Below, in pieces: positions 3,530 to 9,191 of a stretch of 33,554 nucleotides of DNA. Numbering within the stretch: the first letter of the stretch is position 1; each line of letters starts with the position of its first letter. The position numbers and the translations under genes were made by a program. Source of the stretch: a virus (Duplodnaviria > Heunggongvirae > Uroviricota > Caudoviricetes); the IMG/VR virus record IMGVR_UViG_2648501235_000001, positions 1-33,554 of that record; one strand, written 5' to 3'. The notes beneath the pieces are model-generated. The model was not told the DNA's origin and ran no database searches. It saw only the letters and a list, made by a program, of their open reading frames with translations.

Positions 3530-3826
3530 TCAGTCATTACTGATAGCGCCATAGCGTGAGCGGTAATTACGCAGGCGCGGGTCGATATATTCAGGGACGT
3601 GGGTATATGTGGCTTTGCGGAATGGTCGGATTGATGTCTGGTAAATTCGCTCGCGTTCTTCTTTCTCTGCAAGCCATATACAGTGGCGAAATTCCTTTTC
3701 CTCTTTCGTTTCCTGCGGTAGAGACATTATTCGATCGTAGTTTTTTCTGAATTTATCCAGCACCTCCGATACGGAATTGCCGGAACAGCGGCGCGGGTCA
3801 TCCGCACCATACAGAGGCGCTGGCAT
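3530..3826 (-). CDS. Hypothetical early-left protein (98 aa)
   Basis: ATG at 3826 with AGGAG 6 nt upstream, 13 nt downstream of the ssb stop; co-oriented in the pL operon. Confidence 0.5.
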
Positions 3827-3839
3827 GATTTTCTCCTGA

Positions 3840-4346
3840 TTAAATTGCGTGAATAGCGTGACGAGGGAAGGGGAGAGTTACTGGTGCAAAGGGTATATCG
3901 TCGTCAAAATCCATCGGAGGTTCGTTGTGTTGTGCTGGTGATGATTGCTGCTGTGGCTTCTGTGATTGCCTGCTGGCTGCTTGTTGTTTGCTGTCGCCAA
4001 TGCCGCCAAGCATTTGCATCACGCCATTAATTCCGACATGAACCTCGGTTGTGTAACGGTCTTGCCCTGACTGGTCTTTCCACTTTCTGGTTCTCAGCAT
4101 TCCCTCGAAATAAATCTGATCACCTTTTTTCACATACTGCCCCACGACCTCAGCCAGTTTCCCGGATACAGCAACACGATGCCATTCAGTCAATTCCTTT
4201 TGCTCGCCAGTATTTTTATCTCGCCATTGTTCTGACGTGGCTATTGTCAGATTAGCGAACGCTGTTCCTGATGGTGAGTATCGAACTTCCGGGTCTTGTC
4301 CTACCCGACCAAGGATAATCACCTTATTTACGCCTCTGCTTGCCAT
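3840..4346 (-). CDS. ssb: Single-stranded DNA-binding protein (SSB), with 15-residue extension after the conserved DDDIPF tail
   Basis: [23 protein letters not shown]...TEWHRVAV...QDRYTTEV...[11 protein letters not shown] closely matches E. coli SSB (OB fold and acidic tip). Translation continues [15 protein letters not shown] before TAA at 3840-3842. Confidence 0.9.
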
Positions 4347-5054
4347 TTATGCCGCCTGTTTTAGTTCGTTAACTCTGATGTTCATTACCTGAACGCATTT
4401 AGCCTGCGCCTCCTCGTTGCCAGCCATTAATTGCCAGTCACGCTGATAACGCTCGATGAGTTTTTTCTTGTCAGTTTCTGTTGATGCATAATCGCTGAAG
4501 TCTTTCAGGATTTGTTCGCAGTCAACCGATGGAGATTTCTGGTTGGTATTTTCTGGTGATGGTTTGTTATCTGATGCTGGGATTGCCCATCCCGGCAGCG
4601 ATGGAGGGAGCCAGTAAAATCCTGTTCCATCCTTCAGTTTTGCCCTGTGCCACCCCTGCTTTTTATCGAGAGATGTTTGTGCGAAACCTTCCTCAAGGTT
4701 ATACAGATACCGACCGATTCCCCACTGAACGGCAGCGCGCTTCATTGCGCCGGAACGACCACCTTTGACGGCTTCTACCTGCGTGTTTTCAGCAGCATCC
4801 CATTTGGTTACCCATTCGGAATCAATCCTGATTGATATGCCGCATTCAACGCCTCCGTTGTTGGGAATATCGCGGTATTCATTGCGCCATCCTGCTTTGC
4901 CGCAAACATCGTCCAGGCGTTTCATGATTGCCCTGTTCGTGACATAAGCCAGCACCATAGCCCACACCTTGCCATCGCGTGTTTTACCGCTTTGCTGTAT
5001 TCTCCATTCTATATCTTCAGGGCTGAATGGCTCATCGAATTTATTCAAATCCAT
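4347..5054 (-). CDS. Putative phage single-strand annealing protein (Rad52/Erf-like class, tentative) forming a module with ssb
   Basis: 235 aa, ATG at 5054 with GAGGTG SD; its stop abuts the ssb start (4346/4347), a typical SSAP-SSB arrangement. Family inferred from position and general resemblance only; it is clearly not RecT or lambda Bet by sequence. Confidence 0.55.
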   Translation of the reverse strand: MDLNKFDEPFSPEDIEWRIQQSGKTRDGKVWAMVLAYVTNRAIMKRLDDVCGKAGWRNEYRDIPNNGGVECGISIRIDSEWVTKWDAAENTQVEAVKGGRSGAMKRAAVQWGIGRYLYNLEEGFAQTSLDKKQGWHRAKLKDGTGFYWLPPSLPGWAIPASDNKPSPENTNQKSPSVDCEQILKDFSDYASTETDKKKLIERYQRDWQLMAGNEEAQAKCVQVMNIRVNELKQAA

Positions 5055-5153
5055 AATTCACCTCAGAATGGACATGGACCAAGGAAATAACGCTGATTTA
5101 ATACTTCGACTCGGGACAAATTAAGGCATACCCGCATTCCTTCGCGGTCACCA

Positions 5154-5312
5154 TTATGGCGATACCAGAGAGCTTTCTGCGTGTACATGCGTCTCTGTAA
5201 CTTGCTCTCCTTCACTGTGGTTGCAAGTGACATGAATATCTCCTTCGTTACCGATTAATTCTTTCATCTGACGAATGAATTCTTCGTCTGACCAGTTATC
5301 TGTAAAACTCAT
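5154..5312 (-). CDS. Small hypothetical protein (52 aa)
   Basis: ATG at 5312 (MSFTDNWSDEEFIRQMKELIGNEGD...), weak SD; position corresponds to the kil/cIII neighbourhood of lambdoid phages. Confidence 0.3.
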   Translation of the reverse strand: MSFTDNWSDEEFIRQMKELIGNEGDIHVTCNHSEGEQVTETHVHAESSLVSP

Positions 5313-5328
5313 GGACGGCCTTGTTGTT

Positions 5329-5466
5329 TCAAAATATCCCAAAGCTTTTCATTCTTGGTTGTTTAAAGTCTGCTCCGGTTAAAATATTTTTTCGTGAATG
5401 CTGTACCGATAAAATCGGGTTGAAAGGGCGAACCGATGCCGCCCCTGCAATAGCGAACTGTTGCAT
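5329..5466 (-). CDS. Small protein (45 aa), possible cIII-like
   Basis: ATG at 5466 with GGAG 6 nt upstream. N-terminus MQQFAIAGAAS resembles lambda CIII MQYAIAGWPV, but the conserved central CIII helix is not evident, so the call is weak. Confidence 0.3.
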   Translation of the reverse strand: MQQFAIAGAASVRPFNPILSVQHSRKNILTGADFKQPRMKSFGIF

Positions 5467-5541
5467 AGGATGCTCCTTCTGTTTGATTGCATAACGAAAA
5501 CGCCTCGAGTGAAGCGTTATTGGTATGCGGTAAAGCCGCAC

Positions 5542-5910
5542 TCAGGCGGCCTTGATAGTCATATCATCTGAATCAAATATTCCTGATGTATCGATATCGG
5601 TAATTCTTATTCCTTCGCTACCATCCATTGGAGGCCATCCTTCCTGACCATTTCCATCATTCCAGTCGAACTCACACACAACACCATATGCATTTAAGTC
5701 GCTTGAAATTGCTATAAGCAGAGCATGTTGCGCCAGCATGATTAATACAGCATTTAATACAGAGCCGTGTTTATTGAGTCGGTATTCAGAGTCTGACCAG
5801 AAATTATTAATCTGGTGAAGTTTTTCCTCTGTCATTAAGTCATGGTCGATTTCAATTTCTATTGATGCTTTCCAGTCGTAATCAATGATGTATTTTTTGA
5901 TGTTTGACAT
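5542..5910 (-). CDS. Acidic hypothetical protein (122 aa), paralog of the 6090-6413 product
   Basis: ATG at 5910 with GAGGAT SD. D/E-rich; shares EGWPPMDGSEG / SGWEPSMPDGEGW and a ...KAA C-terminus with the neighbour. Confidence 0.55.
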   Translation of the reverse strand: MSNIKKYIIDYDWKASIEIEIDHDLMTEEKLHQINNFWSDSEYRLNKHGSVLNAVLIMLAQHALLIAISSDLNAYGVVCEFDWNDGNGQEGWPPMDGSEGIRITDIDTSGIFDSDDMTIKAA

Positions 5911-5928
5911 CTGTTCATATCCTCACAG

Positions 5929-5955
5929 AAAAAAATCGCCCTCACATTAGAGGGC
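5929..5955 (-). terminator. Candidate intrinsic terminator (minus strand) in the 5911-6089 intergenic region
   Basis: Stem GCCCTC/GAGGGC (5938-5943/5950-5955) with 6-nt loop, followed on the minus strand by 7 U (A-run 5929-5935 on plus). Confidence 0.4.
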
Positions 5956-6074
5956 AAAGAAGATTTCCAATAATCAGAACAAGTCGGCTCCTGTTTAGTT
6001 ACGAGCGACATTGCTCCGTGTATTCACTCGTTGGAATGAATACACAGTGCTGTGTTTATTCTGTTGTTTATGCC

Positions 6075-6100
6075 AAAAATAAAGGCCGACTATGCGGCCT
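6075..6100 (-). terminator. Candidate hairpin/terminator (minus strand) overlapping the stop of the 6090-6413 gene
   Basis: Stem AGGCCG/CGGCCT (6083-6088/6095-6100) followed on the minus strand by a U-rich run (AAAAATAA 6075-6082 on plus). Confidence 0.3.
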
Positions 6101-6413
6101 TATCTACATTTCTGAACCAAACGCAGATCGGACCGTCTTCTGTATCGTGAATCGAACCGACAAACCATCCTTCTCCATCTGGCATGCTTGGCTCCCATCC
6201 ACTGATGTTTGGATTCCCATCTTCAAAATACGCGTCAATTACCGTTTGATTGTTGTCGTTTTCCATTTCAACAATTGATGATTCAATGCCATGCTGCTTG
6301 CAGAAAGATCTGAACTCATCAGCTGAAATTACCTCTCTATCCCCAAACAGGTTGGCGTATTCTGGGTGCGTCCAGTAGCCATCCTCGCTTCGCTCTACTA
6401 CTAATGCTTCCAT
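6090..6413 (-). CDS. Acidic hypothetical protein (107 aa), paralog of the 5542-5910 product
   Basis: ATG at 6413 with GAGGTG SD; D/E-rich; shared motifs with the 122-aa neighbour. Confidence 0.55.
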   Translation of the reverse strand: MEALVVERSEDGYWTHPEYANLFGDREVISADEFRSFCKQHGIESSIVEMENDNNQTVIDAYFEDGNPNISGWEPSMPDGEGWFVGSIHDTEDGPICVWFRNVDKAA

Positions 6414-6475
6414 ATATCACCTCAAATAAGTGGTTTGCTGCCAAAACAATGAACCATCCGGAAATTCCAGATAGT

Positions 6476-6700
6476 TCATAATTCACTCTTCAATACTTCC
6501 AACTTACTAATCGCCGATAGATATCCGCGCTGATAGGGCATCATCATTCCTTCGAGCTTGCCACTTCTTAACTCCTCCCTGAGCAATTGTATTGCTTGAT
6601 CAATAACCTCTGCCTTAGCGTCCTTTATGGCTTGCTTGCGGGGCTTTGCTTTCTGCTTTGGCAGATTTCTCAAGCATGATGGAATGTATGTCTGATTCAT
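6476..6700 (-). CDS. Hypothetical protein (74 aa) immediately downstream of N
   Basis: ATG at 6700 with GAGGT SD 6 nt upstream; the six-frame ORF start at 6703 is GTG. Basic N-terminus, no recognisable family. Confidence 0.45.
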   Translation of the reverse strand: MNQTYIPSCLRNLPKQKAKPRKQAIKDAKAEVIDQAIQLLREELRSGKLEGMMMPYQRGYLSAISKLEVLKSEL

Positions 6701-6703
6701 CAC

Positions 6704-7012
6704 TTACCTCGCTGTCAGTTGTTTTGATTTCCGGTAGCCTGCCGCGTAAAGAGCTACGTTTGGCAGGCAAATACTTCCACTGCATTCATCTGCCTTCTTG
6801 CAGCGAAGGCTTCCGAGTGATATTGCTTTTTCAGAAAGGCTTAACCGCTTTCTCGGGTCTTCCTGAACAGGTTCCTCACTGTCTGTGCCGAAGATCGAAT
6901 CGATGATGTTGCAGATGGAATCACGCTCGATGGCCAGCTTTCTGCGCCGCTCATGACGGCGAGTTTTGGCATTTCCTGCAAATGTTGATTTTCCGTACAC
7001 GATTACCGTCAT
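6704..7012 (-). CDS. N: Antitermination protein N, P22 gene-24 type
   Basis: ATG at 7012 with GAGGA SD. Contains the arginine-rich motif GNAKTRRHERRRKLAIER, which I recall as the P22 N boxB-binding peptide. The six-frame ORF start at 7096 lies 5' of the nutL boxA/boxB (7131-7164), so the shorter product is the real one. Confidence 0.8.
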   Translation of the reverse strand: MTVIVYGKSTFAGNAKTRRHERRRKLAIERDSICNIIDSIFGTDSEEPVQEDPRKRLSLSEKAISLGSLRCKKADECSGSICLPNVALYAAGYRKSKQLTAR

Positions 7013-7130
7013 GATGTTTTCCTCATGTGAAATGGCTTTGGTGGTGATGCGCCAGATGCTGATCTTCTGGTTGCTGTCGTTACTGCTGCAATTCACATCA
7101 CCCCAAACCCATCTCGTTTGGTATCTGTTC

Positions 7131-7164
7131 GCGCTTTGTCAGCGCACCATCGAAGTTAAAGAGC
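7131..7164 (-). promoter_or_regulatory. nutL: nutL (boxA + boxB), P22 type
   Basis: Minus strand reads GCTCTTTAAC (boxA, 7155-7164) then, 9 nt on, GCGCTGACAAAGCGC (boxB hairpin, 7131-7145), matching the P22 nutL boxB as recalled. Confidence 0.75.
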
Positions 7165-7204
7165 CTGCCAATCTGTTCCGTTTGGCTGCCAGCGTCCTGC
7201 TGAT

Positions 7205-7255
7205 GGTGATAATAATGAACTAACAGTTCGATGTTATCAAGAACTATAAGTACGA
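7205..7255 (-). promoter_or_regulatory. Candidate pL promoter with overlapping operator-like inverted repeats (oL)
   Basis: Minus strand -35 TTGATA (7243-7248), 17-nt spacer, -10 CATTAT (7212-7217). Inverted repeat AGTTC-N11-GAACT (7229-7249) and an AAGTACGAA motif are shared with the oR region (9192-9269). Confidence 0.4.
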
Positions 7256-7420
7256 ATTGTTTGTGATTCATTAACTTAATGAGATATGTTTTTGATATGT
7301 AAAGGAATTTATTTTTGTAAAGATTGAAGATTGGTCAGTAGGAGAGAAAGAATTGTTTGCTGGCGTGTTAGTTCGTGGGTTAGCACATGTGCGGATGTTA
7401 AATAAGGTAGACGATCATGA

Positions 7421-7450
7421 GGAAAAGAAAACCCGGCGCTGAGGCCGGGT
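7421..7450 (-). terminator. Intrinsic terminator (minus strand) immediately downstream of the 7455-8354 gene (tImm-like position)
   Basis: 7-bp stem ACCCGGC/GCCGGGT (7431-7437/7444-7450) with 6-nt loop, followed on the minus strand by a U-rich run (GGAAAAGAAAA 7421-7431 on plus). Confidence 0.5.
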
Positions 7451-7454
7451 ATAA

Positions 7455-8354
7455 TTATTTGATTATTTCTTTTATAAAGACTTCTTTCGGTTGGTATTTT
7501 TTATCTGATGATTTGAGCTGGTACGTTATTGTTATATCAGCACGTACAGCAAATTTACCTGCAAAATCTGATGGGTTTACGTTGGGGCCAAGAACCATAT
7601 TTACTCTTCGATCTATTAATCCAGGGATAACAGCGGCCCAACCTTTCTCTGGATTGTCGAGGTCTAATGCACGGATTTCAACATCAACATCAAAATGATC
7701 CTGAGTATATGACTCTGGTGTGAAGACAACTTCAGTTGGGGCTTTTTTAATGGTTTCAGCGGGAATGGTCACTGTACCACCCCCTGTACCTATGACCATC
7801 GTAGATCCTTCGTCTGCCCTAGCTGGGGCAAGCGTCTTAATGGAACTTTTGGCAAGAGTCTTCTTATTGGTTACCGTGCTTTCTATGATTGCTTGAAGAC
7901 GGTCAGGTGAAATATTAGCCTCACCGGCACCAATATTGATGATTGTATTGTTATTTGCTTCAAAGTGGGAGGTGTTGCTTGGAGCCATAGCCTTAGTTGC
8001 TAGAACTAAGCCATATCCAACCAGACCAATAACAACAGCACCAACGAGAGCGTTTCTCATTTTCCCATTTCCGATCTTTGCATGAGCGCCAGCAAGAAAC
8101 TTGTCCATTTCTTCTTGGCTACCAAAGAGGAGTTTAATAACAATATCTTCATAAAGGCTTCCTGCTTCTAATCGCGCAACATGCACCGATATATCAAGGA
8201 TATTAGCCCCTGTCAGTTCCTGCAAAACACCTTCTGATTGTTTTGCGATGGCCTCCCACCCTTGAAGGGAGGTAATCACATCTTTGATGCTTACAGGTTC
8301 TTTAGTTGAATAATATATGTTTTCGGTAAAGGTTAAAGATAATTCTTGGGACAT
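7455..8354 (-). CDS. Uncharacterised single-pass membrane protein (299 aa) in the rexAB slot; putative lysogen-expressed exclusion/defence moron
   Basis: ATG at 8354 with GAGGG SD. Same strand as cI, 129 bp downstream of its stop, and followed by its own terminator. One central hydrophobic segment ALVGAVVIGLVGYGLVLATKAM. About 37% GC in a sampled 60-nt stretch versus about 55% in a late-region stretch. No family recognised. Confidence 0.6.
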   Translation of the reverse strand: MSQELSLTFTENIYYSTKEPVSIKDVITSLQGWEAIAKQSEGVLQELTGANILDISVHVARLEAGSLYEDIVIKLLFGSQEEMDKFLAGAHAKIGNGKMRNALVGAVVIGLVGYGLVLATKAMAPSNTSHFEANNNTIINIGAGEANISPDRLQAIIESTVTNKKTLAKSSIKTLAPARADEGSTMVIGTGGGTVTIPAETIKKAPTEVVFTPESYTQDHFDVDVEIRALDLDNPEKGWAAVIPGLIDRRVNMVLGPNVNPSDFAGKFAVRADITITYQLKSSDKKYQPKEVFIKEIIK

Positions 8355-8483: not shown

Positions 8484-9191
8484 TCATGAACTTTTCAGCC
8501 ATTCCCTGGCCTCGATGTCATCTAGGTGGCGAGATTGCTTCAGAATACCAGCTACATACTCCACCTTTGCTACTTGATGATAAGGCAACGTTATTGGCCT
8601 GTGGTCTTGGTTGATGCTTGTAAATTGGTATTCTCCGTCTCTGTCATAGCCAAGAACCTTGATCATGTTGTGCCCTTCAATGGTTCTGACAAACACCTCA
8701 TCACCTGGGAATACTTTGGTGTTAGGCTCAATGAGTACATATTCTCCTGATTTTATTCTGGGCCACATGCTGTCTCCTTTTACACGAAGACCAAAGGCAT
8801 CTGGATCATCGCTATAAATCTTGAGCCACCCATCGCGCTCTTCGGTCATCTCGATGGCACCATCAACACCAAGAATTGCCTCACCAACCACGCGCACTAA
8901 CCCTTTTTTTAATTTGCCAACAATTGAAAAAGTATCTTCATCATTCGCTCCATTTAACGAAGTGCCGTGCTGAAGCCAAACAACATCAACGTTTAGAAAT
9001 TTCGCAAGCGCATTCATTTTTTCCTGGCGTGGTAAAGACTCAGCATTAAACCATTTGCTAACGCCTTTGGACGAAAGAGAAAGGGCACGGGCTATGGCCA
9101 TTCCCCTACCATGTTCATCAAGACCAGCTTCTTTACAGGCTTGCGCTAGCCGCTGGGCGAATTCTTTGCGCACTTTTTCATTCTGAACCAT
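8484..9191 (-). CDS. cI: CI-type prophage repressor (HTH N-domain + LexA/S24-like autocleavage C-domain)
   Basis: 235 aa, ATG at 9191 with no SD, consistent with a leaderless pRM transcript as in lambda. C-domain has GDSMWP (Ser) and a downstream Lys (MIKVL) typical of S24 peptidases. Not lambda, 434 or P22 c2 by sequence. Confidence 0.85.
   Translation of the reverse strand: MVQNEKVRKEFAQRLAQACKEAGLDEHGRGMAIARALSLSSKGVSKWFNAESLPRQEKMNALAKFLNVDVVWLQHGTSLNGANDEDTFSIVGKLKKGLVRVVGEAILGVDGAIEMTEERDGWLKIYSDDPDAFGLRVKGDSMWPRIKSGEYVLIEPNTKVFPGDEVFVRTIEGHNMIKVLGYDRDGEYQFTSINQDHRPITLPYHQVAKVEYVAGILKQSRHLDDIEAREWLKSS

Follow-up and report, generated by a model that had tools for sequence, protein, structure and literature searches.

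How did two small, strongly acidic genes come to lie side by side in the early left operon of a lambdoid prophage, and what could their products do there? The pair in question occupies positions 5,542 to 6,413 of the IMG/VR record IMGVR_UViG_2648501235_000001, a tailed virus (Caudoviricetes) that was analysed over its whole length of 33,554 nucleotides (nt), referred to here as the window. A preliminary description, made from the sequence alone, had presented the two genes as tandem paralogues, arisen by duplication with divergence, and their products as candidate anti-defence (DNA-mimic-like) or host-takeover factors. Its groundwork is sound. The open reading frame (ORF) call returns two adjacent minus-strand genes of 122 and 107 amino acids (aa), the products of which are strongly acidic, with isoelectric points (pI) of 4.28 and 4.09 and net charges of -14 and -17, respectively. 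Each gene has a good Shine-Dalgarno (SD) sequence (GAGGA and GAGGTGAT, 6-9 nt before the ATG). The N-proximal placement in the pL operon, where lambda carries ral, also agrees with the positions of the P22-type N gene and the repressor gene (Table 1). The window is a lambdoid prophage with an integrase, a minus-strand pL operon and an immunity region, as well as genes for replication and lysis and a head and tail of the lambda type. However, the two genes are unrelated and are not duplicates of each other. The 107-aa gene, which we call ORF107, represents in stand-alone form a large domain family of phages and conjugative plasmids that has not been described, whereas the 122-aa gene is the orthologue of lambda ea10. 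They lie in two cargo slots on either side of a known small RNA (sRNA) gene. The identity of these parts, their non-paralogy and the modular origin of the pair are, in our view, close to certain; the explanation as a whole, in which this anatomy is blended with a counter-defence role for ORF107, is assigned a probability of about 0.6.

A model of tandem duplication followed by divergence, in which an arms race shaped two DNA-mimic anti-restriction proteins, was suggested by the small size, high acidity and adjacency of the two products, together with a loose W-P...G.EG motif and a KAA tail common to both. Pairwise alignment, profile comparison and predicted folds all speak against it. BLASTP of ORF107 against Ea10 gives an E-value of 0.2, and 4.9% of shuffles attain their Smith-Waterman score of 39 (p 0.049). 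Ea10 scores 41, 40 and 38 against unrelated ORFs of the window, so that ORF107 is no outlier. Alignment of the two family profiles with hhalign (29 sequences for ORF107, 48 for Ea10) returns a probability of 0.28%. The folds were compared by the order of secondary-structure elements in two confident AlphaFold2 models, with predicted local distance difference test scores (pLDDT) of 94.5 for Ea10 and 91.6 for ORF107; the orders differ, being b-b-a-a-a-a-b in the former and a-a-b-a-long loop-b-b in the latter. All significant Foldseek matches of the ORF107 model in BFVD are uncharacterised members of its own family. The motif noticed earlier (EGWPPMDGSEG in one of the proteins) is spaced differently in the two families: W-P-x3-G-x2-G in Ea10 versus W-x-P-x4-G-x-G in ORF107. 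The KAA tail is present in both proteins and has its explanation in the DNA, where a boundary terminator stem encodes it in either case. The codons AAG GCC GCx and the stop form the 5' arm and loop of the hairpin behind each gene, and like tails end unrelated cargo proteins, including Ral (...NNKAA) and proteins of 83 aa (...YNKAA), 207 aa (...PSEAA) and 103 aa (...ETSAA). Descent from a duplication is thus very improbable, and the account of duplicated DNA mimics should be dropped.

The DNA between the two genes points to a different origin. The preliminary description had noted a spacer of about 180 bp with two hairpins, at 5929-5955 and 6075-6100. Both are there: the spacer (5911-6089) is 179 bp long, and a terminator scan places stems at 5957-5936 and 6101-6082, or 5957-5929 and 6101-6075 with their U-runs. 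Two points had been overlooked: a third hairpin lies at 6045-6018, and the spacer is a known and highly conserved sRNA locus. It aligns nearly base for base with the ral-ea10 spacer of lambda and with the corresponding spacer of mEpX2. In lambda, this spacer encodes LPR1, also called PreS, an Hfq-bound sRNA of ~88 nt that is processed to ~68 nt and ends at the terminator tL2a (bioRxiv 10.1101/2024.10.31.621285). PreS is expressed during the lytic cycle and pairs with dnaN mRNA, which raises DnaN translation; it supports lambda DNA replication, and its deletion lowers phage yield 2- to 4-fold (bioRxiv 10.1101/2024.10.31.621285). The window copy shares with lambda its location, the body including the unpaired seed region, and the GC-rich terminal hairpin with U-tail. 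Over ~88 nt it differs by two substitutions in the terminator loop and one gap (the U-run is one base shorter), which places it within the limits used in the preprint for LPR1 conservation (>=92% identity to lambda LPR1 and <=3 gaps). The processed 68-nt form would start near 5996. Hfq binding, lytic expression and up-regulation of dnaN are lambda data, whereas the window PreS is known from its sequence. Rfam 15 has no family in 5000-7500, and PreS is thus absent from this release.

The hairpins delimit the spacer. T1, the hairpin behind ORF107, bounds the conserved spacer on the left and is a mosaic joint: it is identical behind an unrelated gene in mEpX2 and behind gp45 of mEp213, and weaker in lambda behind ral. 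At the other end, tL2a serves both as the 3' end of PreS and as the boundary between the spacer and the downstream slot, upstream of ea10. The hairpins that follow ea10 (5493-5550) form the right boundary of that slot; in loci without ea10, tL2a is joined directly to the sequence of this boundary. Between T1 and PreS lies the perfect 12-bp hairpin, the end of which is 2 nt ahead of the 5' end inferred for PreS. It is conserved in lambda, mEpX2 and mEp213, in the last case despite a different gene behind it, and may set the 5' end of PreS as an element for termination or for processing (RNase III/E). The spacer RNA as a whole folds with a minimum free energy of -63.2 kcal/mol (z = -5.98 versus shuffles), and the region 5000-7500 contains seven terminator-like sites against 2.0 +/- 1.5 in shuffles. 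Antitermination by N would be needed for expression of the pair, because three to five intrinsic terminators punctuate this stretch.

To see how the two sides of the spacer are occupied elsewhere, IMG/VR was scanned with a 44-nt stretch of the spacer, and the returned loci were analysed for the gene upstream of it (109 loci) and for slot combinations (96 loci). While the body of PreS is essentially invariant across these loci, the gene immediately upstream of the spacer belongs to 14 unrelated families: Ral (35 loci), a 156-aa protein (19), a 207-aa protein (12), a 149-aa membrane protein (11), a 62-aa protein (8), ORF107 (5) and others. The slot downstream of tL2a accepts about ten cargo families. 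Ea10 is found there in 42 cases, a 322-aa Sf6 gp33-like protein in 13, and one of several other small proteins in further cases; in ~40 cases the slot is empty and the cIII region follows directly. Altogether, 38 slot combinations occur in the 96 loci. ORF107 is partnered by either Ea10 or the Sf6 gp33-like gene, and Ea10 by at least nine other upstream genes. mEp213 carries ORF107 and the first part of the spacer without ea10. Part of the query, chiefly ea10/PreS, is matched in 2249 of 5426 complete E. coli genomes, and only 18 of the 5426 have ORF107 next to ea10. The genes thus assort independently, which is a further argument against duplication with divergence. Given the many combinations and the rarity of the adjacency, we conclude that modular exchange produced the pair. 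The non-coding core, conserved and ~175 nt long, comprises T1, the 12-bp hairpin, PreS/LPR1 and tL2a. It is flanked by two independent slots, the upstream one (ral in lambda) holding ORF107 and the downstream one lambda ea10, and recombination at the hairpin boundaries around the sRNA core joined the pair.

Ea10, PreS and tL2a were already known, and the hypervariable two-slot arrangement is ordinary lambdoid mosaicism, here neatly defined. What is gained is the exact layout of a cargo site, prone to recombination, in the pL operons of lambdoid phages, built around an invariant PreS and bounded by terminator hairpins. The other occupants of the ea10 slot (IMG/VR loci L021, L023, L024, L070 and L112) are mostly unrelated, small and very acidic proteins of 41-138 aa with pI 4.05-4.5 and net charges of -9 to -17; six cargo families fall within this pI range. 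The downstream slot thus seems to gather acidic factors of analogous function. It might also be a hot spot for diverse, very acidic small inhibitors, Ea10 among them.

ORF107 is 98% identical to mEp213 gp45 and belongs to phrog_1372, a cluster of unknown function. It has no match in Pfam, NCBIfam or PADLOC, and neither structural comparison nor a sequence-profile search identifies a neighbour in PDB. Source names among the 120 best matches listed are only 'hypothetical' or 'prophage protein', and a search with the accession numbers found nothing in the literature library consulted. The family is nevertheless very large. It comprises 1009 cluster representatives at 50% identity (E <= 1e-3), with homologues in phages of Burkholderia, Pseudomonas, Vibrio, Erwinia, Klebsiella and Yersinia, and is present in 2442 plasmid records, most of them from Klebsiella and 2130 typed as conjugative. 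Roughly half of the 150 best representatives exceed the single domain in length and carry further modules on either side of it. The fusion partners are mostly unnamed. Those with Pfam names, among 74 multidomain representatives, include Lar_restr_allev (three proteins), Rv2179c-like 3'-5' exoribonuclease (two), a Tad2-like Thoeris anti-defence domain (one, P0196), DHHA1 phosphoesterase (one, P0176), KTSC and a few others. A helical module of ~100 aa without a Pfam model recurs on either side of the ORF107 domain in 17 of ~75 multidomain representatives (e.g. P0161, P0175, P0201 and P0216); it carries the motif ...ERQRQ..EGW...HDD...GELA.AA..Y...KP....L.KAGAL..AEIERLDR and matches only PHROGs of unknown function.

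The genomic neighbourhoods of the family are diverse. A homologue with 46% identity lies immediately after recT in Rac-like prophages of Salmonella, that is, in the place of ralR/lar in E. coli Rac; the contig collection indexes this version in >12,000 blocks. Yersinia phage PY54 encodes the domain in an early operon together with a Lar-like gene, recombination exonucleases and a DNA methyltransferase. In plasmid-prophage-like contigs of E. coli, homologues stand in Ead/Ea22-type arrays with varying neighbours. IncF plasmids of Klebsiella and Shigella (L004 4993-7955, L005 351-1366) carry a homologue between finO and repA, near genes for PIN-domain, DUF2726 (restriction-endonuclease-like) and phospholipase-D-family nuclease proteins. 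The finO-repA position led us to reject the idea that the plasmid copies belong to the leading region rich in anti-defence genes. In pZZDX37-KPC, the homologue is translationally coupled (4-nt overlap) to the DUF2726 gene. A role as antitoxin or immunity partner of the IncF DUF2726 gene was rejected as a general rule, since other plasmids and phages have different upstream neighbours and 4-nt overlaps are usual in these arrays.

ORF107 is thus a very widespread domain without name, structure or function, and its only functional leads point to restriction alleviation and counter-defence. It takes the operon slot of lambda ral, its homologue that of ralR/lar after recT, as in Rac, and in some proteins the domain is fused to Lar-like domains. 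Unlike Ral, which is basic (pI 8.8) and rich in cysteine, ORF107 is acidic with two cysteines and has no sequence similarity to it; there is no Pfam match to Lar_restr_allev or Ral, and Ral forms a separate cluster in the same slot. With T7 Ocr, ArdA, lambda Gam and T7 gp5.9, the two proteins of the window share small size, early and non-essential character, strong negative charge and a distribution over phages and conjugative plasmids. The large net negative charge expected of a DNA mimic (-17 and -14 here) is conserved across both families, with median pI values of 4.23 for the ORF107 family and 4.29 for that of Ea10, and with 12 and 17 alignment columns, respectively, containing >=60% D/E. 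Both proteins would be non-essential early accessory factors, translated from N-antiterminated pL transcripts, which bind host proteins and perform no catalysis. ORF107 would act stoichiometrically, as inhibitor or decoy, on a host enzyme directed at DNA or other nucleic acid; this would be either restriction-modification or a nuclease (RecBCD-type or defence-type). In doing so it would replace Ral in function, perhaps through competition between nucleic acid and its conserved negative surface. Ea10 would be an abundant acidic early protein acting on some host target, and PreS, encoded between them, would support phage replication as it does in lambda, by an Hfq-dependent increase of DnaN translation.

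Position and association make ORF107 resemble anti-restriction or counter-defence cargo, but it is no member of Ral/Lar, Ocr/ArdA, Tad2 or any other defined family. The anti-defence role proposed for both genes in the preliminary description retains circumstantial support in the case of ORF107 (the ral and ralR/lar slots, the fusions to Lar, Tad2-like, Rv2179c-like and DHHA1 domains, the PY54 operon and the presence on conjugative plasmids), for which it is plausible, but Ea10 has no such support. That ORF107 neutralises a host enzyme targeting DNA or nucleic acid, in place of Ral, is a tentative proposal drawn from position and association, somewhat short of an even chance. True DNA mimicry, which would be a subset of this reading, is improbable. 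The broader proposition that the family is a new counter-defence class, either a restriction or nuclease inhibitor replacing Ral/Lar or a binder of an immune-signal nucleotide, is slightly more doubtful than the neutralisation of a host enzyme.

Several observations weigh against a counter-defence role. Neither ORF107 nor Ea10 matches any of the anti-defence or defence profiles scanned, including those of PADLOC. Neither protein resembles known DNA mimics in sequence or structure. ORF107 has invariant residues (R8, G12, H16, P17, W73, P75, W83, F84, S-I-H-D-T-E-D-G-P, W99 and R101), and such a Trp/His/Arg/Asp/Gly-Pro signature suits a site for a ligand, a metal or a protein at least as well as a generic DNA mimic. 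Plasmid anti-defence genes cluster in the leading region, and the IncF homologue lies outside it. Since the slots are general cargo sites, position is weak evidence when taken by itself. The fusion partners named by Pfam are a small minority (10 families among 74 proteins), and the window already encodes an Abc2-type anti-RecBCD protein.

The strongest alternative holds that ORF107, Ea10 or both modulate host physiology or a developmental decision (replication, division, lysis-lysogeny) in the manner of Kil, CIII or the exo-xis proteins, with no part in counter-defence. In its favour is the company the genes keep: in the same operon, PreS acts on DnaN and a cIII-like ORF lies downstream, remote homologues of Ea10 occur in the semi-essential early region of Mu, and those of ORF107 in Ead/Ea22-type accessory arrays. 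The empty defence-profile searches fit it as well. Against it, ORF107 takes the positions of ral and of ralR/lar, and its domain is fused to Lar and Tad2-like domains. Knock-down of ea10 without a plaque phenotype on a permissive host (PMC10695390) is compatible with either model. We consider this alternative unlikely, though a serious competitor. Another possibility is that the ORF107 domain binds or processes a small molecule or a nucleotide signal, as a sponge or a small enzyme, without DNA mimicry. Such a function would agree with the invariant cluster of Trp, His, Arg and Asp and with the fusions, in which the partners include a Tad2-like sponge and enzymes that degrade nucleotides; it appears quite improbable and well behind the physiological model. 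As for Ea10, a single-stranded DNA-binding protein, as database source names such as 'single stranded DNA-binding protein, phage-associated' still have it, is hardly credible given its pI and charge, an alpha/beta sandwich model with neither an OB fold nor OB-fold neighbours, a Pfam match to DUF2528 and to no single-stranded DNA-binding protein (SSB) family, and a separate bona fide SSB gene in the window. The legacy 'ssb' label is accordingly unsupported.

The identity of Ea10 itself is clear. The product is identical to lambda Ea10 (NC_001416, lambdap45) in 121 of 122 aa and matches Pfam PF10800 (DUF2528) with 159.1 bits against a cutoff of 22, over profile positions 1-104 of 104. It falls into phrog_646, also of unknown function. 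Its position between PreS/tL2a and the cIII region and the flanking non-coding DNA are as in lambda; the differences are one V-to-L substitution, ORF107 upstream in place of ral, and the absence of kil after it. All pL genes of lambda except N, ea10 included, are dispensable for plaque formation, and knock-down of ea10 gives no plaque phenotype on a permissive host (PMC10695390). Ea10 is made abundantly from lambda pL and was once mistaken for Kil (PMC3961180). Its role is called 'not fully understood' in the PreS preprint (bioRxiv 10.1101/2024.10.31.621285), and our search of the literature on its function found only this statement and 'dispensable'. Mu-like prophages of Salmonella and Oceanobacter (L015-L018) encode distant members of DUF2528, with ~40% identity; these early-region genes follow those of the transposase and the AAA+ B protein and have Mu Gam, GemA and Mor nearby. 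DUF2528 is therefore an early accessory gene in two temperate-phage architectures, independent of cIII or PreS. Ea10 remains among the last lambda early proteins without a function, now with a confident predicted structure and relatives in Mu-like early regions. A comparison with the SPFH (stomatin/HflK/HflC) domain was considered for Ea10 only. A cell-cycle function of pL that would map to ea10-ral is unsupported; the papers citing Sergueev et al. concern the exo-xis region.

Table 1. Coordinates of the features discussed in the text, as positions in the window.
Feature	Coordinates	Strand	Remarks
ORF107, 107 aa, pI 4.09, net -17, in lambda ral slot	6090..6413	-	unnamed phage/plasmid domain family
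ea10, lambda Ea10 orthologue (DUF2528), 122 aa, pI 4.28, net -14	5542..5910	-	slot downstream of PreS
PreS (LPR1) sRNA, ~88 nt	5929..6016	-	alignment to lambda spacer; 5' end inferred from published length
tL2a intrinsic terminator, 8-bp stem + U7	5929..5957	-	terminator scan; matches lambda tL2a
Terminator-like hairpin T1, overlaps ORF107 K-A-A-stop codons	6075..6101	-	terminator scan
Perfect 12-bp hairpin GUGUAUUCAUUC-CAAC-GAGUGAAUACAC	6018..6045	-	immediately 5' of PreS
Two hairpins after ea10	5493..5550	-	5550-5535 over K-A-A-stop codons; 5518-5493 terminator-like
14-bp imperfect hairpin	6479-6449	-	3' of the 75-aa ORF, just before the ORF107 SD
Basic 75-aa ORF directly after N	6476-6703	-	phrog_5305, function unknown
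P22-type N gene	6704-7096		Pfam N_peptide
Repressor	8484-9191		
SSB (bona fide)	3840-4346		
Abc2-type anti-RecBCD protein	3530-3826		

The stretch 5500-6480 is 100% identical to E. coli O127:H6 E2348/69. In the window, the ssb gene abuts that of a Rad52-family recombinase (3840-5054, minus strand), whereas in E2348/69 an HNH endonuclease is inserted between the two; the window is thus a close relative of the E2348/69 prophage and not an exact copy. Downstream of ea10, a small minus-strand ORF (5296-5466) occupies the position of cIII. Its E2348/69 version has 56 aa with a C-terminal LLEKLWDILKQQGRP, which presumably resembles the core of lambda CIII. In the window, a 13-nt deletion between GAAAAGCTT direct repeats has shifted the frame of the tail. 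No kil gene follows this ORF in the window, while mEpX2 has kil there. Between N and the repressor, in the position of rex/sieB, lies a minus-strand ORF of 299 aa (7455-8354) with no significant match in Pfam or PADLOC. The gene is a candidate for prophage exclusion or defence, and behind it stands a strong terminator-like hairpin (7450-7431) that is bidirectional.

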